Translations under genes and position numbers: made by a program
Shown: positions 5,988 to 31,095 of the stretch, in pieces
How positions within the stretch are numbered: the first letter of the stretch is position 1
How the letters are laid out: each line of letters opens with the position of its first letter
Source of the DNA: an uncultured Lachnoclostridium sp.
Lineage (GTDB): Bacteria; Bacillota; Clostridia; Lachnospirales; Lachnospiraceae
Reading direction: 5' to 3'
Assembly: GCA_947178155.1 (NCBI GenBank)
Contig: CAMWXG010000001.1
Location: 1,248 to 65,247 of the forward strand
DNA: 64,000 nucleotides
Notes under the pieces: model-generated
Told to the model about the DNA's origin: nothing
Seen by the model: the letters and a program-made list of their open reading frames with translations, nothing else
Databases searched by the model: none

Positions 5988-6043
5988 ATAATATAGGGAA
6001 ATAAAAAGGTTGTCAGATGGCAATATATTACAGGAGGATTGAT

Positions 6044-6550
6044 ATGCGAAAACAAATGGAAAACTCATTAGAAAATAAATGCTACACTGGATATGACAAA
6101 TCCATGAGTATTAACGATAAGCTTATTTTTAATATATTGGATTTGAATCATGTTATGCGTTCTTTATATGAGGGGAAGGCAAGCCAAAAGCGTATTTTGA
6201 TTATTCTAAATGAAGTTAAAAGCATTACACAGCGGGATTTGACCGCGCGTCTGGGTATACAGCCTGGTTCTGTTAGTGAAATTCTTTCTAAGTTGGAGAA
6301 TGCGGGGCTTATTTTACGTACCATTAGTGAAACAGACAGGAGAACGGCTGATATTTCACTTACAGACCAGGGAATAAAAATGGCAGTTGAGGCGGCAGAG
6401 CAACGCAGCAGGCGGCATGTGGAGATGTTTTCCTGTTTGTCTGAAAGAGAAAGAGAGGAATTGCTTGCGTTGCTTGAGAAGGTTAATGAGGACTGGGCAA
6501 ACCGCTATGGGATGCCTGAAACACACAGAAAAAAGTGCTATAAAATGTGA
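6044..6550 (+). CDS. MarR-family transcriptional regulator
   Basis: TQRDLTARLGIQPGSVSEILSKLENAGLI...DRR...LT winged HTH; RBS AGGAGG before ATG 6044. Confidence 0.9.
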   Translation: MRKQMENSLENKCYTGYDKSMSINDKLIFNILDLNHVMRSLYEGKASQKRILIILNEVKSITQRDLTARLGIQPGSVSEILSKLENAGLILRTISETDRRTADISLTDQGIKMAVEAAEQRSRRHVEMFSCLSEREREELLALLEKVNEDWANRYGMPETHRKKCYKM

Positions 6551-6580
6551 TAGATGATTTAGAAATGGAGGAATCTGTAA

Positions 6581-8320: not shown

Positions 8321-10130
8321 GTCTAATAATCAAAAATTAGCAGAGAGAAGTATTTCTGGAATGAATAGGCATGAAAGGTTTAGGCAGGTAGAATATGCAG
8401 AGGATGTAGGGAAAACAATGAAGCATATAGCTGTCTACTTTGTTCATGAGAAGATAATGGTTTTTTGTATGCTGGTTATTGTTATATGTGGTACTATCTG
8501 TGGTGTATGTGCGCCAGGTCTTCAAAGTAATGCTGTGGATATTATCGCAGGATCAAGAAGAGGAAATTTTGTACAGACTTTGTCCATTATGCTTACAGTG
8601 TATTTGTTATACAGTGCGAGCGGACTTTTGCAAGGGGGATTTAGTGCAAGATTAAGTCAGCGGATTGTAAAGCGGATGAGAGAAGAACTGTTTGAGAAAA
8701 TAGTGGATTTGCCAATAAGATATTTGGACACTCATTCTCATGGTGATGTTATGAGCCGTATGATAAACGATATTGAAAATATATCTACAACAGTTTCACA
8801 GGCGCTACCTTCACTGTTTTCAGGTGTGCTTACCATTCTGGGAACTGTGATAGTTATGCTTTTGTATTGTTGGCAGTTAGCAATTCTAAGTTTTGCTACA
8901 GTTTTTTTAACGCTTGCAGCCACAAAGATTCTTTCTAAAAGAGTGCGTAAATATTCCCGCAAAAGGCAGATGCTGCTGGGGCAGCTCAATGGAACAGTAG
9001 AGGAGATGATTTCAGGTTATCATACAGTTGTTGCCTATAATCATCAGGATGTTACAATAGATGATTTCTGCGATACTGCAGATGCTCTTACCAAAACCGG
9101 AATAAAAACAGACATTTTCAGCGGTGTTATGGGACCAATTATGAACTGTATAAGTAATATAGGGTTCGTAGTAATTGCAGCTTTTGGAGGGTATTTTTCT
9201 GTTCATGGGCTGATTTCTGTAGGTGTGATTTCTGCTTTTATTGTATATGCTAAACAGTTTAGTCGTCCGGTAAATGAAATTGCTCAGGTTTATGGACAGC
9301 TCCAAACAGCAGTGGCAGGAGCAGAAAGGGTTTTTGCATTGTTGGATGAAGCGAATGAAGAGCAGGAGGGCGTAGAGTTGGAAAGAGAAGAAGGTGCTAA
9401 GGTTACTTTTGAGAATGTACAATTTTCTTATGAACCGGGAAATCCAGTGATTCAGGATTTCACACTTACTGTTCCTTCTGGAAAAAAGGTAGCGTTGGTG
9501 GGAGCTACCGGATGTGGAAAGACTACAATTGTTAATCTGCTTATGCGCTTTTATGATATTGACAAAGGTAAGATACTTATTAACAGTCAGAATATAAAAG
9601 ACATTGGAAGAGGTGCCTTAAGGCACAATATTGCTATTGTATTGCAGGATACAGTTATGTTTTCTAATACAGTACAAGACAATCTAAAATATGGCAACGA
9701 AAATGCAACAAAAGAACAGATTGAGCAGGCAGCAAAGATGAGTCGCTGTGAAGAAATGATTAAAAATCTTCCGGAGGGCTATGATACTATATTAACTGGT
9801 TCTGGTGAAAATATAAGCCAGGGACAGCGGCAATTGCTTGCTATTGCGAGAGCTTTTGTAGCTGATCCTAAAATATTGATCCTGGATGAAGCCACATCAA
9901 ATGTAGACACAAGGACAGAAAAGGCAATTCAGGATGCAATGCAGCAAGTCATGCATAATCGTACCAGTATTGTAATTGCTCATCGTTTGTCTACTATTCG
10001 GGATTCTGATTTGATAGTGGTCATGGATCATGGCAGAATTGTAGAAAGTGGTACACATGATGAACTACTTGTGCAGAAAGGCAGATACTATGAACTTTAT
10101 ATGAGGCAGTATGCTGGATATGCTATATGA
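8313..10130 (+). CDS. ABC exporter, fused permease/ATPase (heterodimer subunit 2)
   Basis: GATGCGKT, ISQGQRQ, ILDEAT, IAHR; GTG start at 8313 after GAGGAGG overlaps the upstream gene end. Confidence 0.93.
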   Translation: MHESNNQKLAERSISGMNRHERFRQVEYAEDVGKTMKHIAVYFVHEKIMVFCMLVIVICGTICGVCAPGLQSNAVDIIAGSRRGNFVQTLSIMLTVYLLYSASGLLQGGFSARLSQRIVKRMREELFEKIVDLPIRYLDTHSHGDVMSRMINDIENISTTVSQALPSLFSGVLTILGTVIVMLLYCWQLAILSFATVFLTLAATKILSKRVRKYSRKRQMLLGQLNGTVEEMISGYHTVVAYNHQDVTIDDFCDTADALTKTGIKTDIFSGVMGPIMNCISNIGFVVIAAFGGYFSVHGLISVGVISAFIVYAKQFSRPVNEIAQVYGQLQTAVAGAERVFALLDEANEEQEGVELEREEGAKVTFENVQFSYEPGNPVIQDFTLTVPSGKKVALVGATGCGKTTIVNLLMRFYDIDKGKILINSQNIKDIGRGALRHNIAIVLQDTVMFSNTVQDNLKYGNENATKEQIEQAAKMSRCEEMIKNLPEGYDTILTGSGENISQGQRQLLAIARAFVADPKILILDEATSNVDTRTEKAIQDAMQQVMHNRTSIVIAHRLSTIRDSDLIVVMDHGRIVESGTHDELLVQKGRYYELYMRQYAGYAI

Positions 10131-10449
10131 TTTTACAATAATTTAAAAATAATACTTCTATTTTCTACGTTTATATGTTATAATGTCAATTAAGCAGATA
10201 TATTGTAAATATCTGTTAGAGCATGTTTGCTTTTTATCATTATTAAATAGTATTTGCAGTGTTGTTATGAATATTAGCTATTATGGTAGCTGTGAAGACA
10301 AATATGTCACTTATGCGACTGCGCTCGGTGTACATCCTATTAGCATATATCATCAATCCCCACACACTGCTAAATGAATTTATGATGAAAATTTGTAATG
10401 AGGTCTAATTAAAAAAATGCAAAATAAGCATAGAAATGGGGGAATATGT

Positions 10450-11070
10450 ATGAGTAAGAAATTAGTTAAAGATTTTTCAGATAGTGTAAAGTTAGAGATT
10501 GTAAATATAGAGGGTTCAGTTGTAAAGATAAAATATCATACATTAAATGATAACAATCCCAGAGAAAATGATAATTATATTGGTCTGTGGGATTATTCAG
10601 AGGGAAGTAATATACGGGGCAAAGCAAAATGGTCAGGGCTGGTTTCAAGAGAGAGTACTGACGGAAGTTATAGTATAGATCTTCCTATTTCAAGTGGTGC
10701 ATATGTCTTAGGATATTCACAAATTGGAGATCCTAAAGAAAATGAGAATGTAGCTAAAAACCTTTCTGCCTGTGCTGTAATTTCTGAAGTAGAAGGGAAT
10801 GATAAAATTGTCTTAAATACATCTATGGAATTGAGTGGTGATTCTAATGAAGTTATATTGAAATATACACTTCTTAATGGTACACGCAATGATGATAATT
10901 GGTTTGGCGTGTGGAATGATATTGATGAGATAGGTGTTGATGCCCCATTTTATCCAGTTAAGACAGATCCAAAAAGTAATAAGTTGATTTTAGGTGATAT
11001 AGGTTTTAGACGTGGTAATAGTTATAAAATTGCACTTTTTGCGAATAATTACAATTTACTTGAACAATAG
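10450..11070 (+). CDS. Hypothetical protein with two tandem beta-sandwich-like repeats; probably extends to 11133 past an in-frame TAG
   Basis: Internal duplication KIKYHTL...NDNYIGLW...YVLGY / ILKYTLL...DDNWFGVW...YKIALF; RBS GGGGGA. Confidence 0.75.
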   Translation: MSKKLVKDFSDSVKLEIVNIEGSVVKIKYHTLNDNNPRENDNYIGLWDYSEGSNIRGKAKWSGLVSRESTDGSYSIDLPISSGAYVLGYSQIGDPKENENVAKNLSACAVISEVEGNDKIVLNTSMELSGDSNEVILKYTLLNGTRNDDNWFGVWNDIDEIGVDAPFYPVKTDPKSNKLILGDIGFRRGNSYKIALFANNYNLLEQ

Positions 11071-11191
11071 GATTATAAAACAAGTGTAAAAAATATGGTA
11101 TCAATTATTGAATTTGATTTTAAAGATGAATAATATTTTTGGTAAAAATATTATTTTTTGCAAAATATTTTAAGGGAAAGGGAGCAGGTAT

Positions 11192-14100
11192 ATGCAGGGT
11201 AAGGATTTTAAAAAGTTGTTTGACAGAGTAAATCTGTATGTGGAATGTAATGATGGTGATACTTATGGAACTACAATAATTGTGGTGTCTGATGATATGC
11301 AATATGGTGCTTCTATTTCTTTTTGTGATGCGGTTCAGATAAAAACCGCATCTTTTCTTTTTGGTGAAAAAAGGCCAGTTGATATTAAAGATATAGAAGA
11401 AGCAGAAAGCATAAGAAATAATTGTATTAAATTTCTTAGTGAGAACAATATTTCGCGTGGTGTTATATGGTTAAATAAAGATGACACATATGTTTTGAAA
11501 CTAAGAGAAGATTTTTCAGCATTGGCTCAGACATTTAACGTTCCTATTAGCGGAACATTTAAACAGGGGATTGAGATATCCATAAAAAATGGTGCTTTGA
11601 TTGATATTGATGAGAAATCATTATACTTAACATATCCTTTGGATTTTTCATTTGGAAATACAAATATAGGGAATGCAATGAGTGTATCTTTAGCATTGTG
11701 TGGAGATATGGCAGGCACTTTGCTTGTTGATATGAATGTTTCAGCAAAGAACTTTACCAGTCTGTTTAGATGTGGTTTTGAGTATGGTTACTGTGGAATG
11801 GATAAAGAGTATTATCTTATAAGTAATAATTTATTTTCTGATAATTGCATGGATTATGCAGATTTAAATGTTTCTTTTGAATTTGGTTTTTGGGTATTGC
11901 ATCCAAACAGAATGTGGATTGAGGTTTTAGAAAATGATAAATATGTCAAAACCAAATTTAAGACTAATTTTACAACACTTTATGGTGATGATGTTTATTT
12001 TTCAGTGTTGGCAGATGCAAATAAAAAGAGCGGAATGGAATTTTTGCATAGAATATCAGATAATGTGAACTGCACTCCTTTGGGCACATATAAAGTATAT
12101 ATAGAAAGAGAAAAAGATATTAAACTCTTATGTGGATTTTCAGGAACAGAATATATGCTATTAGAAAATGGTGCAGATGTATATTTTGAAGCAGGAAAAC
12201 CAGCATTTTCTTCTTATTATCCCGAAAAGGAATTTTCAATAGATGATTTTGTAAATAAGGCTTCTAAGGATTTGCTTACAGACGAAATGACAACTGCATG
12301 GGCAGGCTTTAGTGGAAAATATTATACACAGCCATTGAAGGCTCCGTTTTTTACAGGAACAGATGACATACTTAAACTTGCAGATTTATATATTGATTTT
12401 ACAGATATGCATGGTCTGCCTTTATTGCCAATTATGCCTTACAATGGATTGCGTGTTAATATGAATGGCGATATTAAAAATAGTATGTGGGTATCAGCAG
12501 ATGAAGTTGTAGGTTTTGATAATGTGATACTTGCCAAAGAGAGAAGTAAGTGTGCGGGATTTGAATTAAGCAGATTGATAAGGGAGAATAAAGATAAGAT
12601 TGCAGAGAGTGGCAACAGCGTTACAGCGGCTACGCCATCAGGATTCATTGGTGATATAGCTGATAATATACTTACAGGGGTGAAATTGGCATTTTCAGAT
12701 AGGGGCAATTTAGGATTTTCAGATATTTCTGATGATATTAGAAATGCTTTTTTAGATTCATCATTGTTTTGTGTAATAGTAAATCCTGGTAAAATTGGTA
12801 AGTTTGATAATCAGTTTTCAATTGAAGATTGGAATTTTAAATTATCTATAGGCAGTGGAAGTAAATATAACGAGTATGCAAATGTACTTTTGATAAAAAG
12901 TGTGAGTGGCAGGATTTATAATCCTGATAATGTTTCTGAAAGTCTTTGTGCTAATATTGGTGCATGGACAGGCAGAGACAGCTTTTCAAAACCTGCCGAA
13001 GGAGATATTCCAAATCTTGAGAACTGGCTTATAAATTATTGTAAAAAAAGCATAGAAAATAGAAATGAGAATACATATCTGGAAAAATTTGCAGAGGTTA
13101 TTACTGATGAAAATTGGAAAGGAATACTTGCACTAAATACTACGCTTATGTCAGAGTGTTTTCCTGATTGTTTAAAACCGCTGCTTGCAGGACTTTCAGA
13201 AGACAGTGTAATCTGTGCACATCATGTTGGAGCGGATATTGTTTCAATAAGAAATACAGAGAATGGACCTGTACCTATAGGAAATTCACCATTTTTTGGA
13301 CTTATACAATATAGGGCATCAGGTTATTGTGGTATGGCAATGCCTGTAGATAATTCAGGGGCAGATTACGAATTTAAGCTACTTGAAATGAATGTGCTTT
13401 TTGAAAAAGGCAAGACTAAGGATTTTAAAAGTGTTTCTCAGTTTGTGCTGCGTAAATTTATGCTTAAGAAAGCATCAGCAAAAGGTTGTTTATACAATGC
13501 GTTATTGTTGAATGGTTCTTTGCAGAATAGAAGCGGGCATAGTTACCTTACTATGAATTCTGAAGGAGGAGATTTCTATTTTGATGATGGTGTTATTGAA
13601 AGTGTAGAAGTTTCAGGAGTAGTTATGGAGTCAGTAAATCCCGAAAAAGAAGAGTATGCATTTGATTTATCAGGAGGTGCAAAATTCTTTGAAGCATCAT
13701 CAAAAGATATAGTAGACATATATTCTTATAATTTGCTGCTATTTTCTGATTATCGTATTTTATTTGAGAACGGTATGTTTACACTTGATTTAAGTAAGCT
13801 TAATTTTAATCTGTCGAAATCAGAGTTAAGAGATAACAGCATGTGTAAAAGTTTTGGAATGATACCAGTAAAAGCAGTTACAGGCAATAATATCATAAAG
13901 GAATATAAGGCTATTTCAGTTGAGGGATTAAAGGTAAATGCAAAGTTAGATAATGCTGCAGTGGGAATTATATTTGATGTGCGTCTTGGAGCACTTGGAG
14001 GTCTTTCAGCAGATTCAGTACTTGATTCAAAAGTTATTATTGCATGGAATGATAATGGTGTTTTTATTGGTTTAAAATTGCCTGGAGCATGTATTATTGA

Positions 14101-14287
14101 CAATGTTTTTGGACTTACATTTGGCGAGGCAAGACTTGTAATTAAAGAAGGAAAGCCTGTTATATTTATATCTAAAATGGCGCTTCAGTTATTAGGGCTT
14201 TTAAAGTTTCCGTCAAATGGTGCATGCAGCCTTGCACTTGCAGGTGATGATAAGGGCATTGGCTGGTTTGCTGCATATGAAAAATGA
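11192..14287 (+). CDS. Large beta-rich hypothetical protein (1031 aa)
   Basis: Long intact ORF with RBS; no signal peptide visible; amphipathic strands, ends GWFAAYEK. Confidence 0.85.
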   Translation: MQGKDFKKLFDRVNLYVECNDGDTYGTTIIVVSDDMQYGASISFCDAVQIKTASFLFGEKRPVDIKDIEEAESIRNNCIKFLSENNISRGVIWLNKDDTYVLKLREDFSALAQTFNVPISGTFKQGIEISIKNGALIDIDEKSLYLTYPLDFSFGNTNIGNAMSVSLALCGDMAGTLLVDMNVSAKNFTSLFRCGFEYGYCGMDKEYYLISNNLFSDNCMDYADLNVSFEFGFWVLHPNRMWIEVLENDKYVKTKFKTNFTTLYGDDVYFSVLADANKKSGMEFLHRISDNVNCTPLGTYKVYIEREKDIKLLCGFSGTEYMLLENGADVYFEAGKPAFSSYYPEKEFSIDDFVNKASKDLLTDEMTTAWAGFSGKYYTQPLKAPFFTGTDDILKLADLYIDFTDMHGLPLLPIMPYNGLRVNMNGDIKNSMWVSADEVVGFDNVILAKERSKCAGFELSRLIRENKDKIAESGNSVTAATPSGFIGDIADNILTGVKLAFSDRGNLGFSDISDDIRNAFLDSSLFCVIVNPGKIGKFDNQFSIEDWNFKLSIGSGSKYNEYANVLLIKSVSGRIYNPDNVSESLCANIGAWTGRDSFSKPAEGDIPNLENWLINYCKKSIENRNENTYLEKFAEVITDENWKGILALNTTLMSECFPDCLKPLLAGLSEDSVICAHHVGADIVSIRNTENGPVPIGNSPFFGLIQYRASGYCGMAMPVDNSGADYEFKLLEMNVLFEKGKTKDFKSVSQFVLRKFMLKKASAKGCLYNALLLNGSLQNRSGHSYLTMNSEGGDFYFDDGVIESVEVSGVVMESVNPEKEEYAFDLSGGAKFFEASSKDIVDIYSYNLLLFSDYRILFENGMFTLDLSKLNFNLSKSELRDNSMCKSFGMIPVKAVTGNNIIKEYKAISVEGLKVNAKLDNAAVGIIFDVRLGALGGLSADSVLDSKVIIAWNDNGVFIGLKLPGACIIDNVFGLTFGEARLVIKEGKPVIFISKMALQLLGLLKFPSNGACSLALAGDDKGIGWFAAYEK

Positions 14288-14347
14288 GATGTTATGATCG
14301 GATAGCTGTAAATGACAGCAAAATAGATATGTTGGGAGGGATTTAGA

Positions 14348-15424
14348 GTGTTAAGATATAAAAATGCAAAGAATAAAAGTAATTATGTATCAGTGAAAAT
14401 AAAATCAGGTGTTGATTTAGATGTTCCTGCTAAGAATGGTTTAGGCGAGACAAGATTAATGAGCAGTGAATGTAATCTTGTGTTTTGGCTTGTGCCAGGT
14501 GAGCATATAGCATCTGTAAGTTATGACGCAGGTGTTATTAATGGAAAGAAGGTCATAGGTGAGGTAAGAGTATATTATGCATATAAAAATGGAAGGATTT
14601 GTGTCTGTGAATATGACTTTAAACATAAGGGATACTATAAAGCACCTTCTCATTATACAAGGCCTGAATTTCATCTTTATGAAAAGACAGAGGAGGATAA
14701 TCAGCTATATGAAAGAGAACCATTGCTTGTAGTATCAGCAAGCAGAAATGTAAAACATACAACAGCGATTGAAAATGTATTGCCAGTTGAAAATATATTT
14801 TCAATAGAAAATAGGGAGTTTAGTAAAGCGCTAGATAAGATTCAGGCAAGGCTTAGAACGGTTTATAATAAAATATCAGATGCACTTAGTGGTAGAAAGG
14901 TATTTTTGTCAGTGCATATAGATGATTTTATTGAGTGCAGTAAAGATGAGGTTCCAGTAAATGGTTTTTATGTAGATAAGTGTTATAACTGGTATGGAAA
15001 ATTCATAAATGTAGTACTTAGCTCTAATGATTATCCGGAATATACTACTATTACAAGTTGGATAGAATACTATGGTGATAAAGTTTGTGGAAATAGGGAT
15101 TATTATAAAACAACTCTCTGCTCAAGTTATAATTATGGATTGAAATGTATAAAGTATGGAAACGTTAAGAAAAATAATGTTGGCGGGCATATACTATTAT
15201 GTGACTATAATAATTCATATATAAGATGTGTGTGTGATGATGTGACTGTAATAAAAGCAGGGATAAGTTGGGAAGATCATAAGGTATATCCTTATAGCAG
15301 ATATAATATGCTTCCTATTTGCCCAAGGCATAATAACTATAGCAAGTGGGATGTTGCAATGTATGTACATCAAAATGCACCACAGACATTATTGTATCTA
15401 ACTAATTTTATACCTGTAGGGTGA
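14348..15424 (+). CDS. Hypothetical Cys/Tyr-rich protein with C-terminal His-Me-finger/HNH-like motif
   Basis: GTG start with RBS GGGAGG; TSWIEY...C...C...VGGHI...LPICPRHNN. Confidence 0.7.
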   Translation: MLRYKNAKNKSNYVSVKIKSGVDLDVPAKNGLGETRLMSSECNLVFWLVPGEHIASVSYDAGVINGKKVIGEVRVYYAYKNGRICVCEYDFKHKGYYKAPSHYTRPEFHLYEKTEEDNQLYEREPLLVVSASRNVKHTTAIENVLPVENIFSIENREFSKALDKIQARLRTVYNKISDALSGRKVFLSVHIDDFIECSKDEVPVNGFYVDKCYNWYGKFINVVLSSNDYPEYTTITSWIEYYGDKVCGNRDYYKTTLCSSYNYGLKCIKYGNVKKNNVGGHILLCDYNNSYIRCVCDDVTVIKAGISWEDHKVYPYSRYNMLPICPRHNNYSKWDVAMYVHQNAPQTLLYLTNFIPVG

Positions 15425-15437
15425 TGGAGGTTGAATT

Positions 15438-18400
15438 ATGGATATAACACAATTATCAGAAAAACTATTGTCTGATACAAGGCAGACAGAATATGAAAAA
15501 GGTTTTATTGATACTTATAAAAAATTTATTAATCTTATAAACAGTTTTGGAAGATTTGGCGTTTATTTTGACAAAGATTACAACTGTGCAAATACTATAT
15601 ATCTTTTAAAAAGGCTTGAGAGTGAGACTTCTATAGTAAAACCTGATGGAAGCGGGCGGGGGAATATATTCCTTTTGTATTCGGCTTCTGATGCAAAGCT
15701 ATGCAAAAAACTTAATGAAAATCTTTCTTTTTTTAATGAATACAGCAGGGTAGAGAGTGCGGAAACTGCTGATTTTGAGTTACTAATCTGTGGAGGCGGA
15801 GATATTGATGATAACATGTATGATGCTTTAAACAGTACAGTAAAGTATGTAATAACAGTGAGACCTTATTTAGATTATGAGGATTACTGCTTTATTAAGA
15901 TTAGAAATGAAAATAAAGAATTTACTACATATTTTACTGATACAATTTATCTTAATAAGTCATTTTCCGGTATGAATTTTTATATTGAATCTCCCAAATT
16001 AAGTAAGCTTACAGATGATTTAAAGAAATATTGGAATGAAAAATATAACAGTAGTTTTAATAAAGCAGAATCTATATTGTCATTTTCAGGAAGTTCTTTT
16101 AATCTTTTTACTGTTGATGGTCTTGTTAGTGAAGGTAAAAGTACAGCAACCGACAGGGCTGATACAGCTATAGTTATTCTTATATTTGCTATGCTTCAGG
16201 CATTTTTTAAAACAGGTAAAAGTGAGCAGCCGTATGTATTGGCGATGACTGATTTTGAAAACGCTGATAATAAATGCTTTGATTTGATAAAGGCTGCATG
16301 TGATATTAAAAAAGATACAGAGGAGCTTTTAAAAGATTTAAAAAAGATTTATCCTCAGGCAGATGAAGAAGATATAAAGACAGGTCTTTTAAATCCAATT
16401 ATTGAAAAGAGAGTATCTCTTGGAAACTTTCTTGATAAGGTTGAAATTATTGATAAGGAATGTCTGCCATATACTTTGCAAAATAAGATATATATATTTC
16501 CTGTAGGACCTTTGCCGTATGATTATATGAATGCGATTTTTGCAAAAAGCAATATGTTGTTTTTTGAATCATGTGATTATGTCAATCTTGCAATTAATAT
16601 TGGTGTGCCATATATTAACAAACAGATTGAAAATGCAGGCAGAAGTTATCCTTCTTTAAGTTATCCAAATATTGCACTTAATATGGAAAAGATTTGTGAC
16701 ATTTTTAAAAATTCTGTATCTGCATATTATACTGCAGTGGATGATAAGCTGGCAAATGAGATAGATACATTGGCTGAATTTTTCAAAAATCCACAGAATA
16801 GATATTTTGAATATATTTCTGATAATGCACAAGGTATAGATGCATCAGGAAATCCGTCTCTTGCAAATGATAAGTTTGCAGCTTCGGCAGGCGTATTTTA
16901 TTCACTGTCTGGACTAACATATAAATCAGGTAAGAAAAATGATGATGAGTTTAATCCACAGGTAATTTATAAGAAATTATGTGACAATTTTAATGATGAA
17001 AAAAAGGAATTAAATTTCAGTGCTGCACTTAAAGGAACCCGTATTGAAAAATATCTTTCTGATATTGTATCACTTTCAGGAGAAAAGACAGTTGTATTTA
17101 CGCTTACATCAAAAAATGATATAGAGCTTGAGAAAGAGGAAGGTGAAAAGGAATCAGATGCAGAGATAGTTGGTATAAGTATTAAGAATGCTTCTATTTC
17201 AGGGCTTGAGGGGATTACATTGGAGCTTAGTCTGTCTGACTGGTATGATGCTTCAGGCAGTACAAATATACATGGTACATGGGGAAGTAAAAGTAATTTA
17301 TCTGGGATTACATGGCTTACTGTTTCAGATATAAGTTTTGATATAAGGATACCTGAAAATAATATGCCTGTATCAGGTGCAGTAAGCGGATATCTGGGAA
17401 AGACAGATACAGATTTTGGTATTAATCTTTGTTTTATGATAAATGAACAGGATGGTATTTCAACGATTTCAGCTAATTGCAGAGAGCCTATTACTACTTT
17501 TGACTTAATAGAAGCTATTGCAGGAGGTCTTAATTTTAATTCCCTGCTTCCAAGTGAACTTATCAGTGGTAATCCTGTAATTACGCTTGGTCTTTCAAGT
17601 TTTGTCTTTAAGTATAATAGGAAGAAAAGTGAAATATATTCTATGAATTTTTGCTTTGCAAATAAGGCAGAGAATTTATGGGTATTGTGGGAAAAGGATG
17701 GCAAAAAGCTTTTGAGTGCAAGACCAGAGGTTGCAATAGATGTAATTTCTCCGGCTGATATGGCAAACAGACAGACATCAGTTATGATTGGCTCTTTTGT
17801 TGATATTGGGAGCCCTGAAGAAGATGGCGATATAGGCTCGCTTTGGTTAAGTGCCTCATATCCTCCTTTTACTGCAGAACTTCGTATGGCGTCGGAAAAG
17901 ATATCACTTAATAAACTGATAGAGCTTTTTGGCTATAAGACAGATTTTGAAGCCGATATTATTGATTTATCTATTACTGCAGATTTTGGTAAGAAGATTT
18001 ATCAGTTGTCGGCTGCGGTAGAAGGAAATTGGAAGCTTAGTGATGAGTTTGTTATAGAGGGCATAGGGCTTCACATTCTTGGCAGGGCAGGTAGGTTCAG
18101 TGTTGTATTTTCCGGACTTATAAATGTCTTTGGTATAGACGTGGCAGTAAGAATAGGTTATTTAGGAGAAGGAAAGTGGAATTTATTTGCAGAAGCAAAG
18201 TTTGGTGATAAGATTCATATGTCAGATATTATAAATGAGTATAAAGACGGAAATGAGATTACTATATCAGATGAGGATAAAGATAATCCTTTAATTGCTG
18301 ATGTTTCATTTTCATTAACAAAGACTGACAGTCATACTGATTATGAGATTGCTGCTTCTGTAAAAGATTGGCAGATTAGTCTTTTTGGTACAGAAAAGAC

Positions 18401-21400
18401 AGTAAATGCATCGGCTTTGATAGGTAAAAATAATGGCAAATTTAGCGCATATCTTATTGCTGAGATAAATCTTTTGGGTGCAGATTGCAAGATAAAACTA
18501 AATTATTCTGATACAAAGAGTTTTGAACTTATCTGGGGAGTTTTTCATGGAGTTGTAGAGAATAAAAATAATGAAACAACAGTTTCCATATCGTTAAGCA
18601 ATTTTAGTATAGGCAAAATGATAGAAACATTTATAGGCTGGCTTAAGGGTTCGGAATTTTCACTTGATGAGCCTTGGAATATATTAGAGAAATTCTGTTT
18701 TGATTTTTCACTTGTCTATAATTTTACTAAAAATCAGTTTAGCATAAAGCTTGAGCTGCCAAAGCCTATTGAGATAGGTTTTGGAAAAATAGAAAATATT
18801 AATGTCGTATATGATAAAAATGCAGAAAGTAAAATAGATGTTTCACTTGATATAACATATGCATGGAAAAAGGATACAGAAAGTATTTCATGGGATGCAT
18901 CAGAACCGGGCAATGCTCCTGTTCCGGCAGGAAGTGGCAGCAGTTATTTTGATTTAAATTATCTTGCGTTTGGGCAGAAAATGCGATTCTTTGATGATGT
19001 GAGTAAGATTACAAGTGCATCTGCTGCAATTACTGCGCTTAAGGATAATATTAGTCCCGATAAAATCCCGGAATTTGATAAAACTACAGGTATGCTTATA
19101 GCATCTGATTTTGGGATATTAAAGGAGAAGGGAACCTATTTTATTAAAGCTGAGCTGGTATTTTGTGATTCTTCATTATATGCACTTCACATTGCTTTGG
19201 ATTCGACAGCCGCAAAGGTACTTAAAGGATTTTCATTTGACATTATATATGCTAAGCTATCCGAAACACTTGGAGTGTTTAAGGCTTTAATTGTACTTCC
19301 TGATATGTTTAGAAAGTTTGATATTGGAGCATATTCAATTACAATGCCTGATTTTTATATTGAGGTATATACAAATGGAGATTTTAAAGTTGATATTGGC
19401 TTCCCAAAGAATGGTGATTTTTCAAGGTCTTTTACACTGGAGGGAATTATTCCTCCTGGTATTCCTGTTACAGGTTCGGCAGGTCTTTATTTTGGAAAGT
19501 TATCATCAGCAACAGCAGAAAGTTCGGGTGTAAATCTTCCCAAAACTGACAGAGGAGTATTTAATCCTGTTATAGCATTTGGTCTTGGCATCAGACTGGG
19601 TATTGGTAAAAAAATTGAATATGGTGGTATTTTAAAGGGTGGTTTTTCACTTACTTTAAGTACTATACTGGAAGGTGTAATTGCAAAGTTTCATACATAT
19701 GATGGGAGCACGCCATCAGAACCATGGTATTATTATCTTAAAGGCTCAGCAGCTATAGTTGCAAATGTATATGGTGAAATTGATTTTGCAATTATAAGTG
19801 CATCATTAAATATTACTTTGAGTTTGTCTGTTGCTTTTGTATATGAAATATGTCGGGCTTTTTTACTTACTGTAAGTGTAATGGTAAAGGCAGCGATATC
19901 ACTTAAAATAAATCTTGGACTTTTTAAAATTTCTATTGGTTTTAGTTTTGAGATGAAATTAACAGAAAGCTTTACAATAGGAAAAAATACACAAGCACCA
20001 TGGGATATTAAAGGAATACAAAAAACAAACAGTTTACCAAAACAGAATAAAATTAATGTTGATTTTAGTAATTTAAAAGCTGATAAGATAGATATAAAGG
20101 GCTGTATATCATTATCAATAACATCATCAGGCGATGAGTATTTAAGTGATGCAATATTTGTTTTAAATAATGTCATTATGACATTAAATGGCGGTGATAA
20201 TTTTAAAATTCTGGCAGAGCGTTTAGCTTACTGGGTATTTGCAGCAGTATGCGAAAAAGAAGTTACGATAGAAGAGCTTAAATCTTTTATAATTACTGAT
20301 GACTGTCTTGCGGAATTTGAAAATTATTTTACACAGACACAGATGCCTGTAACACCTGAAGTGGCAGAAGAATTTTGTGAGAAATTTATTGTAATAAATA
20401 TACAGGATAATGAAACTGAATATTTAAGAAGAAGTAATGAAGAAACTGTATCTGATGTATATTTTCCGCTTCCTGTACAGATAGAACTTACAGCAGTTTA
20501 TAAAGATGAAGAAAAGGAGAAGGGAAAATATAAGTATAAATTATCTGAATATAACAGTCTGGCAAATGGAGCACTTGATAAATTTAAAGAAATGTTTAAA
20601 GAGCTTGCGGTTACTGTAGAAAATGAAGGGAATGAGAAAGATAAAAATAAATTTCAGGTTTTTGATGAAAAAGGAGTATCAGTTGCACAGCTGGTATTTT
20701 GTGATTGGTTTTCAATGGCTGCGTCGCAAATTGTACATTCGGCAAGGAGACTTTATAGGGATAAGGGTGTATCAAAATTGAATGTTGATACAATAATGAA
20801 AGAGTTTTCTTCTGGAAGTGTGTATTCTGATATGGCAGGAATATTATCAAGATATTTTCTTCATGGACTAAGACTGCCTACAACGGATAGCGAGCGGGGA
20901 GCGCTTATATGCCCTAATAAAAAGGGACTTTGGGTAAATGAGTCAGAAGGTATGCTTACCTTGCCAAATGAAGCGGGAATTTTTGCACTTACCGGACAGT
21001 CATTTATGGCAAATGATGAAGACGGAGATTCTTTAAGTGTACTGGTTAAGTCGGATGCTTCTTATTTAAAAATACCAGATGATTTTTGTCTTAAGATTGA
21101 TACGGCAGCTTATGATAATGAGGAAATATGCATTGAGGAAAGAATCTCAAGTTGCGCAGAGAGTTTAGATATAGAATATTTGCTTGAAAAGACAGAAGCA
21201 GAATTTATTCCTGAAATAATATCTTTTGGAAATCCTGCAAAAGTTGGAAACAGGAATTTATGGACAATGCCTGAAGGATTAAAAAGTTATTTTTCTGCTG
21301 ATTATGTAACATATCCTAAATTTGATTTTAATTATGTAAGATATGATACAGAGATACATAAAAGAAACCCAGATACGGAATTTATATCACTTATTGAATT

Positions 21401-24400
21401 TAATATTGAAGCGTCTGATATTAATAGTGTGTATTTTATAAAGAGTGCATCAAACGAATCAAAAGATATACTTACTAATATAATTTCGCTTGAAATGGAG
21501 GAAGAGATAAGCGTAAAAGGAATTAGTATTATAGAAGGTGAAAAAGAAATATCATTAGGAGACAAGGAAGTATTTTGGAGTATTTCACAGATTAATTTGT
21601 CTACACAGACTTTGCCGCCACAAGATACAATGATAGGAAATGAATCAAGTATATTAAGACTTTTATGGAAAGCGTTTTCAACAAATAACAATGGTTACAT
21701 ATTAACTTATAGGGATAATAAAGGTACTAAACTTAATGATAAAAATAAGGTTGTAATTGGTGTAAGTTATGTTGAAAATATTGCAGAAAAAAATATAAAA
21801 TTATCATTTGTAAACGCAGTATTTGCAGATAAAAAGCTTGAGGAGGGAGAAAATTTATCCGCATTTGCAAGAGAAGATAGTGCAGAAATTTTGTCTGATA
21901 ATGAATTTGCACTTTCAGATATCGCAGAAAAATATTGTACTGATATTAAAAGAATTGCAGATAATAATTTAGATTTAATTCTAAACAGCACTGTTTTATG
22001 GGATTTTAAGGATATTGTTTTACAGTCAGGCGGGGATGCAAAGATTATTGGGGATTATAAGGAAGCACCAAAGGCTGGTGAAACATTAAAAGAATTTGCA
22101 GAAAGAAATAATGTAACACCTTATTATGCTCTTTGGATTAACAGGGATAAAAAGAATTTATTTAATAAAGGGCAGAAGATATGTATAAGTGTGCAGGCAG
22201 GAATGAGAGCCGGAAGCGGAAGTGAAAATACTACTTCTCTTATTAATGAGAGCTTTAAAATTTCAAGGAAGCAGGCAGAAGTTGAGGAAGATTTCTTAAG
22301 CAAAAATTATGAGCAAAGTGTTTTGCTAAATAATTATACTCTGTTAAGTTATGGTATAAAAGGTCATAACATATATTCAGCTCCTATCTCATATACAGAG
22401 GATAATGACAGGCTTTTATATAATGCAGATATTCCGGCAGATAGATATATGGGTGGTTCATATGCTTCCTATGGAAGGCTTATGGAATTTGATTTTCTAT
22501 GGCTTGATTATTATGGAAACAGACTTATACCTCCATTTTATACAGCATGTATTGCAGGGTATCAGGATACTTTGCTTGGTTTTTCAAAATGGCAGTCAGT
22601 TGGAATAAGTTATAATATTGTGGACTGTACCACAAGTGATAAAGCTGTTCTAAGGGTTAAGACAGTATTTTCTTCTGCTGATTATTATAATGATGAAACA
22701 GGCGAGTTAAGAAGTAATGCACTTTCGTTTTATAAGAGGCTGCAAAAACAATTTTTGGATAAAAGAGTAAATGTTTATCTGAGATGTTCAATATTTGATG
22801 AAGTTTCAGAAAGTAAAAATGCATCTGCATGGAAGAAAATGATTGAAGATATAATTGCATTTTTAGATAAATGCAGAGAAGATGTACCAGAATATAATTT
22901 TGAGTTTTCATTTAATAAAAATGCACTTAGTAAAAGTTTATTTTTCCCATTAGAAGTAAGTATCGTAGTTGAAAGAGCTGGCAAAGCTGACAGAGGATTT
23001 GAAGAAACGGCTGGTATCGTAAGTACAGAGTCTTTGCTGGGGATAGCAGAGGATATAAAGAAATTTGCAAAAGATTTTAGAGAAATATATAAAGGTTATA
23101 TCCTTTTAACAGGTGGAAAAAGTTCTGCTTTGTATGTGTATAAGGTATCTGAATTAAATGTTAAGATAAATTCAGGCAAGAATATATTTCTTCCAAAACC
23201 TTTTTCAAATGTTCTTAAATCATATGATAATGTTACAATACAACTATATGAAAATGGAAGTTTTGGAAATAGTATAGTTAAAAATTATCAGTCTGTTGAT
23301 ATAAATGTGTGGGTGCGCAATGCCTTAAGTTTTATTGATAAAGCTACATCTGCAAATATTGTCAGTGCTGCAGGAATTGTATATTATGATTATGAAAGTA
23401 TTTTGGCAATGAAAAAAGAAATTGCAGTTAAGCTTTCAGAGTGTCTGGTATCTGCATTAAATGATGACTGTGCAGTATTTAGTGAGGCAAAGGAGGAATT
23501 TAAACAAAAACTTTTAGGTTCTCTATCTGAGTATTTTGAAGTAAAAGCTGTAGTTACGTTTGAAGCAGATACTACAGGGCTTCCAGAAAATGCTAAGTTA
23601 TATGGAAGTATTAAAGATGAGAATGACAATCTTGTATCATATTCAGGTGTAAAGTTTGAGAATGGAAGTAATAAAAAATATGCTGTAGCTATTTCAGGAA
23701 GTGATGCAGTTCTTGATAAAAACGGTGCAGTATTAGCTTCTATTGATGCAAAACTAAAGTTCACTGCTACACATATTGAAAGTGATATAAGACCTTTTAT
23801 TGATGATTTTAATGCTTCACAATGGCATGGTGCAATAAGTGATAATATTACAGATATATATTTAACAGATGAAAGTGAAGAAAAATCTGTTAATGTCCCA
23901 CTTCCTTTGTATACATTTCCAGAAACTCCTATAATGAAAGAACAAAAAGCAGAAGCCGGGCAGAGAGAGGATTGTTGGAGATATGCATATACATATTCAA
24001 GAACATATCATTATCCTCAGCAGATATGCAGATGCAAAGTGAAATATAATGTAAAGAATGAAGCCAAAGATGTGTTAAATGATATTTCATATGATTTATT
24101 TTCATTACTTGCTCAAATTGATGCCACCGGAAGTGATATTTTAAATGACTTAGAAGAAATTGCTTTGGAGATTAATGAAAGTAAGAAAGTAAAGCCTGAT
24201 GCTGATTTGCAGAGTCGTTTTATAAAAGTATATGATTGTATAAGAAGCATTTTAGGGAGGTTTGCAGAATGTGAATATGATGTTTTAGAGACCTGCAATT
24301 TGAAAGAAAATGCTGAATATATCACAGAGTTTATGGTGTTGGAGAAAAGTTATAACAAAGATTTGTTTTGCATTGAGCTTGACTGCAATAATGTGGAGCC

Positions 24401-25070
24401 TTATATTGAAGGATATGTCGCTAAACGAGTGGGTGAAAATAAAGATAGCAGTTGGATTTTTTGTAATAAAGCCGGCGAGTATCTTAGTTATGCTGAAGGT
24501 CAGAAAATTAAGAAAAGAACCATGATTATGCCAGAACATGAAGTGCTTGATTACCAGAATGGGATAGCAGAGATGTATGTTGAGCAGAATAAAAATCTGT
24601 GTGGTGGAAATATTAATGAACTTTTTGTATATACAACAGGAATTATCTCGTTTGGTTCTGCAATCAATGCATCATGTACTATTAATGATGTAGATTTAGG
24701 GCAGGAGGTTAAGGATAAAAAAATGCTTGCAGATAAATTAATTGTGTATATAAAGAAATTAATTAAAAATAATTCAGTAATACTGCAGGGGCAATGTGTA
24801 TACTCAAATAAAATTTATAGTAATCTGCAATTGGTAGAGATGCCGGTATTTTCACAGACAAAGGTTAAGATAGACGTAAGCAGTCTGGAGGAAGTTATTA
24901 ATAAATGGATTTTATTTATAAAAGACTGGAGAAAAGATTTCAAAGCTTTTGAATTTGCACAAAGCGAGAAATTGTCTTTTGAACTTGTATTTTTTAGTGT
25001 AAGTGAAGAAGTTCCACTGCTTACTGTTAAGAATTTATTTAGTGTAGGGGAGGATGTTGTGATAAAGTAA
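15438..25070 (+). CDS. Giant multidomain hypothetical protein (3210 aa) with extended beta-sheet region and two degenerate LysM-like repeats
   Basis: 9.6 kb uninterrupted ORF with RBS GGAGG; LSDIAEKYCTDIKRIADNN and GETLKEFAERNNVT...LFNKGQKI resemble LysM. Confidence 0.85.
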   Translation: MDITQLSEKLLSDTRQTEYEKGFIDTYKKFINLINSFGRFGVYFDKDYNCANTIYLLKRLESETSIVKPDGSGRGNIFLLYSASDAKLCKKLNENLSFFNEYSRVESAETADFELLICGGGDIDDNMYDALNSTVKYVITVRPYLDYEDYCFIKIRNENKEFTTYFTDTIYLNKSFSGMNFYIESPKLSKLTDDLKKYWNEKYNSSFNKAESILSFSGSSFNLFTVDGLVSEGKSTATDRADTAIVILIFAMLQAFFKTGKSEQPYVLAMTDFENADNKCFDLIKAACDIKKDTEELLKDLKKIYPQADEEDIKTGLLNPIIEKRVSLGNFLDKVEIIDKECLPYTLQNKIYIFPVGPLPYDYMNAIFAKSNMLFFESCDYVNLAINIGVPYINKQIENAGRSYPSLSYPNIALNMEKICDIFKNSVSAYYTAVDDKLANEIDTLAEFFKNPQNRYFEYISDNAQGIDASGNPSLANDKFAASAGVFYSLSGLTYKSGKKNDDEFNPQVIYKKLCDNFNDEKKELNFSAALKGTRIEKYLSDIVSLSGEKTVVFTLTSKNDIELEKEEGEKESDAEIVGISIKNASISGLEGITLELSLSDWYDASGSTNIHGTWGSKSNLSGITWLTVSDISFDIRIPENNMPVSGAVSGYLGKTDTDFGINLCFMINEQDGISTISANCREPITTFDLIEAIAGGLNFNSLLPSELISGNPVITLGLSSFVFKYNRKKSEIYSMNFCFANKAENLWVLWEKDGKKLLSARPEVAIDVISPADMANRQTSVMIGSFVDIGSPEEDGDIGSLWLSASYPPFTAELRMASEKISLNKLIELFGYKTDFEADIIDLSITADFGKKIYQLSAAVEGNWKLSDEFVIEGIGLHILGRAGRFSVVFSGLINVFGIDVAVRIGYLGEGKWNLFAEAKFGDKIHMSDIINEYKDGNEITISDEDKDNPLIADVSFSLTKTDSHTDYEIAASVKDWQISLFGTEKTVNASALIGKNNGKFSAYLIAEINLLGADCKIKLNYSDTKSFELIWGVFHGVVENKNNETTVSISLSNFSIGKMIETFIGWLKGSEFSLDEPWNILEKFCFDFSLVYNFTKNQFSIKLELPKPIEIGFGKIENINVVYDKNAESKIDVSLDITYAWKKDTESISWDASEPGNAPVPAGSGSSYFDLNYLAFGQKMRFFDDVSKITSASAAITALKDNISPDKIPEFDKTTGMLIASDFGILKEKGTYFIKAELVFCDSSLYALHIALDSTAAKVLKGFSFDIIYAKLSETLGVFKALIVLPDMFRKFDIGAYSITMPDFYIEVYTNGDFKVDIGFPKNGDFSRSFTLEGIIPPGIPVTGSAGLYFGKLSSATAESSGVNLPKTDRGVFNPVIAFGLGIRLGIGKKIEYGGILKGGFSLTLSTILEGVIAKFHTYDGSTPSEPWYYYLKGSAAIVANVYGEIDFAIISASLNITLSLSVAFVYEICRAFLLTVSVMVKAAISLKINLGLFKISIGFSFEMKLTESFTIGKNTQAPWDIKGIQKTNSLPKQNKINVDFSNLKADKIDIKGCISLSITSSGDEYLSDAIFVLNNVIMTLNGGDNFKILAERLAYWVFAAVCEKEVTIEELKSFIITDDCLAEFENYFTQTQMPVTPEVAEEFCEKFIVINIQDNETEYLRRSNEETVSDVYFPLPVQIELTAVYKDEEKEKGKYKYKLSEYNSLANGALDKFKEMFKELAVTVENEGNEKDKNKFQVFDEKGVSVAQLVFCDWFSMAASQIVHSARRLYRDKGVSKLNVDTIMKEFSSGSVYSDMAGILSRYFLHGLRLPTTDSERGALICPNKKGLWVNESEGMLTLPNEAGIFALTGQSFMANDEDGDSLSVLVKSDASYLKIPDDFCLKIDTAAYDNEEICIEERISSCAESLDIEYLLEKTEAEFIPEIISFGNPAKVGNRNLWTMPEGLKSYFSADYVTYPKFDFNYVRYDTEIHKRNPDTEFISLIEFNIEASDINSVYFIKSASNESKDILTNIISLEMEEEISVKGISIIEGEKEISLGDKEVFWSISQINLSTQTLPPQDTMIGNESSILRLLWKAFSTNNNGYILTYRDNKGTKLNDKNKVVIGVSYVENIAEKNIKLSFVNAVFADKKLEEGENLSAFAREDSAEILSDNEFALSDIAEKYCTDIKRIADNNLDLILNSTVLWDFKDIVLQSGGDAKIIGDYKEAPKAGETLKEFAERNNVTPYYALWINRDKKNLFNKGQKICISVQAGMRAGSGSENTTSLINESFKISRKQAEVEEDFLSKNYEQSVLLNNYTLLSYGIKGHNIYSAPISYTEDNDRLLYNADIPADRYMGGSYASYGRLMEFDFLWLDYYGNRLIPPFYTACIAGYQDTLLGFSKWQSVGISYNIVDCTTSDKAVLRVKTVFSSADYYNDETGELRSNALSFYKRLQKQFLDKRVNVYLRCSIFDEVSESKNASAWKKMIEDIIAFLDKCREDVPEYNFEFSFNKNALSKSLFFPLEVSIVVERAGKADRGFEETAGIVSTESLLGIAEDIKKFAKDFREIYKGYILLTGGKSSALYVYKVSELNVKINSGKNIFLPKPFSNVLKSYDNVTIQLYENGSFGNSIVKNYQSVDINVWVRNALSFIDKATSANIVSAAGIVYYDYESILAMKKEIAVKLSECLVSALNDDCAVFSEAKEEFKQKLLGSLSEYFEVKAVVTFEADTTGLPENAKLYGSIKDENDNLVSYSGVKFENGSNKKYAVAISGSDAVLDKNGAVLASIDAKLKFTATHIESDIRPFIDDFNASQWHGAISDNITDIYLTDESEEKSVNVPLPLYTFPETPIMKEQKAEAGQREDCWRYAYTYSRTYHYPQQICRCKVKYNVKNEAKDVLNDISYDLFSLLAQIDATGSDILNDLEEIALEINESKKVKPDADLQSRFIKVYDCIRSILGRFAECEYDVLETCNLKENAEYITEFMVLEKSYNKDLFCIELDCNNVEPYIEGYVAKRVGENKDSSWIFCNKAGEYLSYAEGQKIKKRTMIMPEHEVLDYQNGIAEMYVEQNKNLCGGNINELFVYTTGIISFGSAINASCTINDVDLGQEVKDKKMLADKLIVYIKKLIKNNSVILQGQCVYSNKIYSNLQLVEMPVFSQTKVKIDVSSLEEVINKWILFIKDWRKDFKAFEFAQSEKLSFELVFFSVSEEVPLLTVKNLFSVGEDVVIK

Positions 25071-25135
25071 TGTTTATGTTTGGAATAAAACTACATACAG
25101 AGAAATTATACTAAGCATTAAGAGGAGGTGTTTAC

Positions 25136-25234
25136 ATGGAGTTATTCTTCACATTTCTTGTGACTGTCGTAGCAGGTGTGGTTTGCCACCTCATCAGCAA
25201 ATGGCTGGACAGGCACGACAAAGGCAACAAATAG
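25136..25234 (+). CDS. Type I toxin, Fst/Ldr-like 32-aa membrane peptide (not in ORF track)
   Basis: MELFFTFLVTVVAGVVCHLISKWLDRHDKGNK*; RBS AGGAGGTG; single TM, KWLD motif and charged tail. Confidence 0.85.
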   Translation: MELFFTFLVTVVAGVVCHLISKWLDRHDKGNK

Positions 25235-25259
25235 CCTAGTGGGTGCTTTGCCACTATAA

Positions 25260-25347
25260 AAAGAAAAGAAGAATCCCCCGACTGTACGCCATTACGGTTG
25301 GGGGATTTGTTCTTTGCCTACATGGATTTCTCCACATTTCTTTGCCT
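25260..25347 (-). ncRNA. Putative antitoxin sRNA convergent on the toxin gene
   Basis: Minus-strand promoter just upstream, shared hairpin 25266-25315, and a direct repeat (25319-25342) of the toxin start region; boundaries approximate. Confidence 0.65.
25266..25315. terminator. Bidirectional terminator hairpin of the TA locus
   Basis: aatcccccgactgta-cgccat-tacggttgggggatt flanked by A-rich and T-rich tracts. Confidence 0.75.
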
Positions 25348-25353
25348 ACTGGC

Positions 25354-25382
25354 ATTATAGCATATGCAAATTTTAATTGCAA
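25354..25382 (-). promoter_or_regulatory. Sigma-A promoter for the antitoxin RNA
   Basis: Minus strand TTGCAA (25382-25377), 17 bp spacer, TG-n-TATAAT (25359-25354). Confidence 0.75.
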
Positions 25383-25465
25383 TATACACTTCTTTTTGAT
25401 AAAACAAAATTTATCCTTATTTGGTATCAATCAAATCAGTATATGTAAAATACATTAGCATAGCC

Positions 25466-25584
25466 CTCCGTTGACAGTAACAAGCAGTGCGGAAAATACT
25501 GAATACACACATTTTGCCAAAATAAGATTTTGTTCCAAATCATGCCAAAAATCCCTGAATTTGGCGTGGGGTGTAAAAAGTAAC
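25466..25584 (-). repeat. GTTAC...GTAAC intergenic repeat, copy C (inverted)
   Basis: Reverse complement reads gttactttttacac...gatttttggcatgattt...aaaatgtgtg...gcactgcttgttactg, sharing modules with copies A, B and D. Confidence 0.8.
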
Positions 25585-25838
25585 GGAAAATATCATTAGT
25601 TTTCTTATTGTTATTATGATAAAAAAAGGTTATAATATATTTTGTTTTATATCAAGGATATTATACTCAAGGCTGATTCAATCTGCCTTGAGTATTGCGC
25701 CAACCTACACCCGCAAAGCGGCATACTTCCTTATGCGGTTGTGCGCATCATATTATACTGCATGGCAAATCTTTCTGGTGTGCAGTATATAACAAAAATT
25801 ATAGAAAGGATATTTTCAAATTAAAGGTGAGTTTTACT

Positions 25839-29168: not shown

Positions 29169-29182
29169 TATAATCTCCTTCC

Positions 29183-30988: not shown

Positions 30989-31095
30989 TACAAACATTTC
31001 CTCCTTCAATTAAGCTAATTGCTTATGGTGAAAAAATTTTTATCTTCAAATAATGTAAAATGGTGTTGATAAATACTGTTTTGTAAATTCTTAAT

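Follow-up and report, generated by a model that had tools for sequence, protein, structure and literature searches.

The stretch of DNA analysed here (the window; 64,000 nucleotides of contig CAMWXG010000001.1, uncultured Lachnoclostridium sp., assembly GCA_947178155.1) contains a block of four genes, designated S, M, X and G, that an original prediction made from the letters alone had singled out as a giant-protein operon and a candidate undescribed system. The four co-oriented open reading frames (ORFs) proved to be real, all lying on the plus strand with a purine-rich stretch resembling a ribosome-binding site ahead of each, and the intergenic gaps were 121 nucleotides between S and M, 60 between M and X, and 13 between X and G (Table 1). 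The range of 58-121 nucleotides first quoted for the S/M gap reflects the end of S, which stops at a TAG (11068-11070) while its frame stays open to a TAA (11131-11133). No hairpin resembling a terminator was found in the three gaps, as claimed, but seven weak plus-strand hairpin matches lie within the coding regions; the strongest match of the region is situated 3′ of the block. As originally noted, none of the four proteins has a visible signal peptide: none contains an N-terminal hydrophobic stretch (best Kyte-Doolittle window 0.69-1.27, by an 11-residue window, a simple heuristic and not SignalP). The whole S, M, X and G proteins all scored under the cut-offs in Pfam, NCBIfam, PADLOC and PHROGs; M and G had no significant match among PDB sequences, and Rfam gave no match over 9900-26000.

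Table 1 Features of the gene block and its 3′ neighbours, in window coordinates
Feature	Position	Strand	Description
S	10450..11070	+	206 aa; small two-repeat beta protein, ends at premature TAG
S read-through stretch	11071..11133	+	20 in-frame codons past TAG; match last strand of S family
M	11192..14287	+	1031 aa; constant partner, predicted mostly beta
X	14348..15424	+	358 aa, GTG start; additional cargo-slot gene
G	15438..25070	+	3210-aa giant, entire gene
N1 (G residues 5-487)	15450..16898	+	glycosyltransferase-like cargo domain
c1-c2 (G residues ~508-1160)	16959..18917	+	predicted amphipathic beta-meander with periodic helices
c3 (G residues ~1167-1524)	18936..20009	+	most conserved part of G; predicted porin-like curved sheet
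Two LysM-like repeats (G residues 2161-2201 and 2215-2265)	21918..22232	+	PF01476 below cut-off
Conserved C-terminal region of G	23985..25058	+	
Fst-like type I toxin	25136..25234	+	32 aa; neighbour, outside the conserved system
Strong terminator-like hairpin	25271..25308	+	16 pairs; first after the block

Homologues were collected with queries from both large proteins. Residues 1100-1900 of G recovered 82 proteins, many of them with Pfam LysM (PF01476), and a profile of M matched 679 representatives at E under 1e-30 in a library reduced to 50% identity. Two short patterns matched 316 stretches of the GTDB species collection, of which the best 80 were analysed, together with 80 of 133 metagenome loci; the sampled loci are the closest relatives, and distant forms are under-counted. 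An earlier metagenome scan with a narrow M alignment had given 0 of 334 candidates. Bacterial carriers belonged to Bacillota, Actinomycetota, Bacteroidota, Pseudomonadota, Acidobacteriota, Myxococcota, Planctomycetota, Spirochaetota and Fibrobacterota, and methanogenic archaea carried further GTDB loci. M lay upstream of c3 in 68 of 68 GTDB loci and upstream of G in all 125 loci whose upstream flank measured 9 kb or more, out of a total of 169, near-duplicates included, the remainder being too short. The proposed order of a small gene, a gene for about 1000 residues and a giant, with a variable third gene and a patchy phylogeny, held in the homologue loci, where S occurred in one to three copies upstream of M. 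On sequence evidence, then, S, M, a variable slot and G form a conserved cross-phylum gene set of patchy spread, at a cost of 13-17 kb per genome. Nine plasmid records carried the system (five of these were retrieved), and c3 was found on four IMG/VR viral contigs, which probably represent island DNA, and in no phage record. In a tree of c3, the window copy fell into a nine-row group with L002 (Fibrimonadaceae), the rest being Lachnospiraceae or other Clostridia-type rows. Apparent N-terminal extensions of G in five high-GC loci (L012, L044-L046, L051) were rejected as an artefact of the ORF filter, M being hidden in another frame.

The loci also indicate which parts are constant. Natural M::G fusions were found in two of the 82 giants tested (P0089 and P0090), in which a Gly-rich linker joins the last strand of M to the strand that opens c3, with the cargo and c1-c2 left out. 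A compact plasmid copy in Lysinibacillus (L179:15632-26138) consists of M and a 2102-residue G that begins at c3, with no cargo. Because the fusions and this two-gene layout skip both parts, the minimal core appears to consist of M, c3 and the C-terminal half of G. Cargo and c1-c2 together make up, by these gene layouts, an optional insert in the family. We infer physical binding between M and G from the fusions and short layouts. In sequence, comparison of the M and G profiles was negative. The LysM-like repeats of the original prediction were supported, as the window repeats resembled PF01476 below its cut-off (E 0.007, 16.7 bits, with a cut-off of 20.9) and are homologous to relatives that bear PF01476. 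The neighbours of the Lysinibacillus copy are nucleotidyltransferase/E2/JAB, HNH and vWA genes. In the endofungal Mycetohabitans rhizoxinica, S, M and G lie on the conjugative plasmid pBRH02 (L181:389-15968), with G as two genes.

Analysis of the slot between M and the core of G bore out the idea of variable cargo, since unrelated enzyme-like proteins (glycosyltransferase-like, EEP phosphoesterase, MBL fold and kinase-like) share this position. In the 155 loci where M and the core of G occurred together, the slot contained a glycosyltransferase-like N1 in 99, EEP in 38, MBL in 7, DUF4135 (kinase-like) in one and N1 with an X homologue in one, and was empty in 9; classes were assigned from Pfam matches to some members plus clustering, with L104 (EEP) and four L032-type proteins (MBL) placed by motif only. 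N1 was a separate gene in four loci (L013, L033, L036, L056). On the c3 tree (115 rows, built by a quick method, with metagenome glycosyltransferase rows and identical rows left out), the slot label required 14 changes, against a minimum of 5 and a shuffled mean of 48.1, and the glycosyltransferase label 8 changes against 38.5 when shuffled. The EEP locus L104 nested among MBL loci with near-identical cores (compared with L108 and L110), one MBL locus was sister to a glycosyltransferase locus, and so was the DUF4135 locus. As far as the tree tells, the cargo is mostly inherited with the core, yet exchanges have taken place several times, in one case between cores that are nearly identical. Two MBL cargo genes (L136:7472-8677 and L152:6858-8336) have signal-peptide-like N-termini, unlike M and G. 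In a Paenibacillus plasmid copy (L180:10987-16234), genes for an alpha/beta-hydrolase-like protein and a Nal1-like protease lie upstream of M, and therefore cargo may also precede M.

The enzyme-like N-terminal domain of G received weak support as a glycosyltransferase, but the copy in the window has altered family motifs. Searching N1 against PDB profiles gave an EarP structure at E 1.8, over the second motif, and in hhalign comparisons with EarP both motifs were paired at P 0.008-0.012, with P 0.04-0.8 for three unrelated controls. The EarP sequences came from five other genomes, since a search of 151 genomes from the phylum of the host gave neither EarP nor any control match. The GHQA of N1 aligned weakly over the GDIG of EarP, and the G-x-x-P...FEG...G-x-PY stretch over the RGED stretch; these weak motif-level matches, at both ends of the GT-B active site, might reflect a two-Rossmann GT-B fold. 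D13 and D17, given as invariant for EarP in the accessible part of PMC5615199, are not kept in N1, PF10093 had no match among 58 rows, and neither this model nor the invariant D13, D17 and E273 marked N1 as an enzyme of the EarP type. Within the N1 family, G[HN]Q is present in 45 of 58 rows and an FEG-like motif in 48 of 58, whereas in the window GHQ reads ANT and FEG reads FES. Similar alterations occur at both motifs in P0011, P0012, P0013, P0015 and P0017, which are the closest giants among those listed (the first four with 44-46% identity), and because the change is common to these five it appears to be a conserved trait of the lineage. With both motifs altered the domain may be inactive or repurposed, and the glycosyltransferase-like cargo of the window lineage looks degenerate.

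For X, called a nuclease-like ORF in the original prediction, the nuclease reading draws on a C-terminal pattern seen by eye, GGH...LPIC.RHN, which resembles that of His-Me finger nucleases; no library match was found. Only two homologues were found, P0240 (73%) and L002 (35%), and among the three sequences GGH and LPIC are kept in all and the final HN in two. X is likely a nuclease, and it would then be the working cargo in the window lineage. In Enterococcus, the relatives P0010 (M) and P0017 (G) have accession numbers two apart, which suggests a gene in the position of X.

Unlike M and G, which are uninterrupted over 12.7 kb, S carries a premature stop in the window. When the TAG was read through as an unspecified residue, coverage of the S family profile rose from position 202 to 216 of 218, and the closest relative, L002, ends in a matching last strand. 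Recoding of TAG was unsupported, with no CTA-anticodon tRNA among 25 tRNAs and TAG serving as the stop of 272 of 1142 long ORFs. An error in the assembly consensus might account for the TAG in S, a site left uncovered by public contigs aligned to 10300-11500. Most relatives have a longer G than the window copy, from which the first LysM cluster has been lost. Together with the stop and the altered motifs of N1, this might mean that the family is a real machine but that its copy in the window is in decay and has ceased to function. Given the intact M and G, the sharing of the altered motifs with the five closest giants listed and the possible consensus error, we consider such decay improbable.

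The position of S is itself variable. S precedes 66 of 77 glycosyltransferase loci and 0 of 24 EEP loci, a pattern confounded by clade; an immunity role of S is conceivable. Elsewhere its place is taken by genes for small proteins, many of them with a signal-peptide-like start, or for collagen (L076, L128, L170), collagen plus Kelch (L172), S74-chaperone (L038) or LamG (L183) proteins. In EEP-type loci the gene just 5′ of M often has a signal-peptide-like start (8 of 18 in one main cluster, 14 of 25 in the other). These signal-peptide-like and fibre-like proteins point to a job outside the cell. A family-4 glycosyltransferase gene lies 5′ of the collagen-like gene in L076, L128 and L172.

Structure prediction supported the claim of two large beta scaffolds. 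The AlphaFold2 model of G residues 500-1560 (75 sequences; predicted local distance difference test score, pLDDT, 83; predicted template modelling score, pTM, 0.47) is a continuous antiparallel meander in which a helix follows each run of six to eight strands and the last six strands are 18-23 residues long, and the AlphaFold2 model of M (pLDDT 90, pTM 0.78) is mostly beta. The 30 strands of c1-c2 are amphipathic throughout (Kyte-Doolittle 1.62 versus -0.90 by face), and the strongest amphipathicity was seen in the last six strands of c3, with a mean of 2.56 on the hydrophobic and -1.04 on the polar face. The c3 model (residues 1167-1556) aligned with 14-18-stranded porins such as CymA, OccAB1 and maltoporin over about 260 residues (Z about 13, root-mean-square deviation, rmsd, 7-10 Å). 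It differs from porins in this high rmsd, in an identity under 10%, in having no signal peptide, in being enclosed in a 3210-residue protein and in occurring in monoderms and archaea. Foldseek TM-scores (template modelling) for the G model were all low, and fold searches with M gave background matches only (best Z 6.1), barely covering its N-terminal two thirds. The models thus predict a porin-like amphipathic sheet for c3 and a long sheet hydrophobic on one side for c1-c2.

Such a sheet also resembles lipid-transfer machinery, and the block might instead be a conduit of the envelope, in which the sheet of G would form a lipid groove or belt anchored by LysM while the slot enzyme modifies a passing lipid or wall polymer of the producer, or a harvested lipid. 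The amphipathicity of all 30 c1-c2 strands fits this, as do an alignment of G residues 747-1130 (model 248-631) with the ApoB100 beta-belt (Z 11.1, rmsd 12.3, 276 residues), weak matches to viral Chorein-N proteins (E 0.015-0.017) and faint matches of M to TULIP folds at background level (P47 Z 5.0, BPI Z 4.9, OrfX Z 4.5). EEP, MBL, glycosyltransferase and kinase folds include enzymes acting on lipids and wall polymers, and a conduit could do without an immunity gene. ApoB and the bridge-like lipid transfer proteins (AsmA, TamB, YhdP, VPS13) are likewise built as one extended antiparallel sheet, a single layer thick and hydrophobic on one face, with repeats closed by a helix or loop, and the continuous amphipathic beta-sheet repeats that characterise them were found here in the sequence pattern and secondary structure; an N-terminal anchor helix is typical of them, according to the accessible part of PMC10345924. 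Against this, neither M nor G has an N-terminal membrane anchor or Chorein-N/AsmA homology, AsmA/TamB profiles were negative in 14 comparisons (best P 0.018, with profiles of 6 and 5 sequences), and of these chains only ApoB appeared among the top 50 fold matches, c3 filling the lists. The system is furthermore tied to a variable enzyme and LysM repeats, it occurs in monoderm bacteria and archaea, close relatives are without M, unlike the case of housekeeping lipid conduits, and a conduit accounts less well for the fibre-like genes at the place of S and for a nuclease-like X. We regard a lipid conduit as possible but doubtful.

We favour a different reading, to which we assign a probability of roughly 0.4: S, M, X and G may assemble into a large complex that is released, attaches to a target surface and carries an enzyme to or across the target membrane. 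M and c3 would form its core; the target would be bound by the LysM repeats and by the protein at the place of S, here S itself and in other loci a collagen, S74, Kelch or LamG fibre; c3 would insert into the membrane, and c1-c2 would hold or guide the cargo that precedes it. Exit of the complex from the cell would involve no signal peptide and might occur through lysis, and the slot enzyme, X in the window lineage, would be presented or passed at the target membrane. The fibre-like partners, the enzyme classes and the porin-like sheet support this reading; toxin warheads are often glycosyltransferases, EEP enzymes, kinases or His-Me finger nucleases.

Several observations weigh against release and delivery. 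Among 1356 flanking ORFs, genes for secretion, lysis or immunity do not recur, no flanking family other than the S-position genes is present in more than 8 loci, and a co-oriented ORF starts within 150 nucleotides after G in only 33 of 150 loci, those scanned being unrelated. Signal-peptide-like starts were seen in 1 of 135 M and 0 of 70 G proteins. The cargo mostly tracks the core tree, with a turnover lower than in polymorphic toxins, and in 9 loci the slot is empty. The glycosyltransferase assignment of N1 is weak (EarP E 1.8; hhalign P 0.008-0.012), X had no match in Pfam, NCBIfam, PADLOC, PHROGs or PDB, and the porin matches, of high rmsd and from a model with a pTM of 0.47, describe a curved sheet and not a closed barrel. 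The EEP, MBL, glycosyltransferase and kinase folds fit the envelope conduit equally well.

The released complex would be comparable to Tc, RHS and polymorphic toxins, which share signal-less giants, large beta-sheet shells, an exchangeable enzyme and a patchy spread, and a variable enzyme module on a constant core, as in polymorphic toxins, is present here. The differences are that there was no sequence match, with no RHS/YD repeats and no TcA or TcB domains in Pfam or NCBIfam, and that Foldseek similarity to RHS and TcdB2-TccC3 was negligible (TM under 0.1). In contrast to the polymorphic-toxin layout of a C-terminal toxin with an adjacent immunity gene, the cargo lies ahead of the core, with G following directly, or is a separate gene, and no 3′ gene recurs; neither a polymorphic-toxin trafficking domain nor a linked secretion system was found in the libraries or among the flanking ORFs. 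Downstream of G, several Acidobacteria loci (L014, L017, L024, L070, L099) have a family of 266-282 residues directly 3′, trypsin-like in L070, and two Chitinophagaceae loci (L039 and L053) have genes with an FHA domain.

Lack of signal peptides and of an immunity gene would also suit an intracellular defence against phages or plasmids, in which the scaffold senses an invader and activates the slot enzyme or opens a c3 pore, halting or killing the cell. The patchy and mobile distribution agrees with this, and some copies have suggestive neighbours: the nucleotidyltransferase/E2/JAB genes by the Lysinibacillus plasmid copy, type III-B CRISPR genes in Azospirillum lipoferum, a caspase-like gene in Nostoc and a HEPN_AbiV gene downstream in one locus. 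S, M, X and G, however, matched no PADLOC model of a known anti-phage system (the flanks were not systematically scanned with PADLOC), the flanking genes were mostly ordinary (65 proteins scanned), and LysM, the collagen/S74/LamG fibres and the partners bearing signal peptides point outward. A defence function is in our view unlikely.

The closest relationship outside the family was with cassettes encoding DUF6603 (PF20248), compared in six neighbourhoods. PF20248 matched one giant weakly (E 0.045, 13.7 bits versus a cut-off of 27) and, at its cut-off, neither the window G nor any of 67 c3 rows. The c1-c2 region of G, on the other hand, has homologues just before the DUF6603 domain in 4 of 6 DUF6603 proteins (E 6e-12 to 2e-16), and an MBL gene homologous to the MBL cargo of the slot lies directly 5′ of 3 of the 6 (E 3e-26, 3e-24 and 6e-5), so that the upstream beta-meander and the enzyme gene in front are shared. 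DUF6603 occupies the place of c3, and a terminal hairpin-plus-PW end is common to both (hhalign P 5e-4), the resemblance to c3 being limited to this end. The cassettes differ in being split into several genes for 800-1500 residues and in having no homologue of M, S, N1 or the C-terminal part of G in the six neighbourhoods; comparison of M with the DUF6603 profile was negative. From these homologies, the DUF6603 cassettes are an uncharacterised sister system and not a member, sharing the cargo-plus-meander module and the layout. More tentatively, and with less than even odds, LysM-giant operons and DUF6603 cassettes might be two branches of one undescribed class of protein-delivery machine, with a constant partner-plus-barrel core, a plug-in enzyme with a beta-sheet cradle and swappable surface-binding tips, that would inject or display enzymes at foreign membranes without a known secretion system.

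The core is widespread and costly in DNA, yet no paper on it was found; a search of the literature, subscription papers and supplements being outside its reach, found neither a description of the gene set nor a paper mentioning DUF6603, and PMC3482391, as far as its accessible part goes, treats other giant proteins. New here are the homology between the LysM-giant and DUF6603 systems, which unites two extensive groups of hypothetical giants in a single superfamily, the layout of core versus insert, and the census of cargo. Should protein delivery across membranes be true, the block would represent a new class of delivery machine; should lipid handling be true, monoderm bacteria and archaea would have a new family of conduits. 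The constant core offers a natural plug-in slot for enzymes, and many cultured non-pathogenic carriers exist, among them Chitinophaga jiangningensis, Pseudomonas spelaei and a Streptomyces carrier.

In the window, the block is accessory, as its placement between unrelated loci had suggested: a search of 40 relatives, including 24 of the same genus, found M in none. Its GC content of 0.324 falls in the lowest 3% of 164 genome windows (0.349 ± 0.013). The anticipated ABC operon lies upstream (6017-10130) and is ordinary, with a MarR regulator and two ABC transporter genes, and the anticipated type I toxin-antitoxin locus lies downstream, where the Fst-like toxin (NF033608, E 3.6e-5, 23.5 bits, cut-off 26) is followed by a sodium-dependent transporter. 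Searches with 25080-25380 and 10131-10450, the only queries used, placed a second copy of the toxin locus on contig C15 (73% identity) and not in the window. The two flanks of the block share no 10-mer or longer. Comparison of 19 genus loci gave no clean empty site, the upstream ABC genes not being seen within 1.5 kb of the downstream transporter pair. That pair is syntenic in 7 of the 19 loci, where the first gene of a second ABC transporter pair (27405-31009, minus strand) adjoins the sodium-dependent transporter. The Fst-like toxin locus (25136-25382) contains a good antisense promoter-like site on the minus strand, at 25382-25354.

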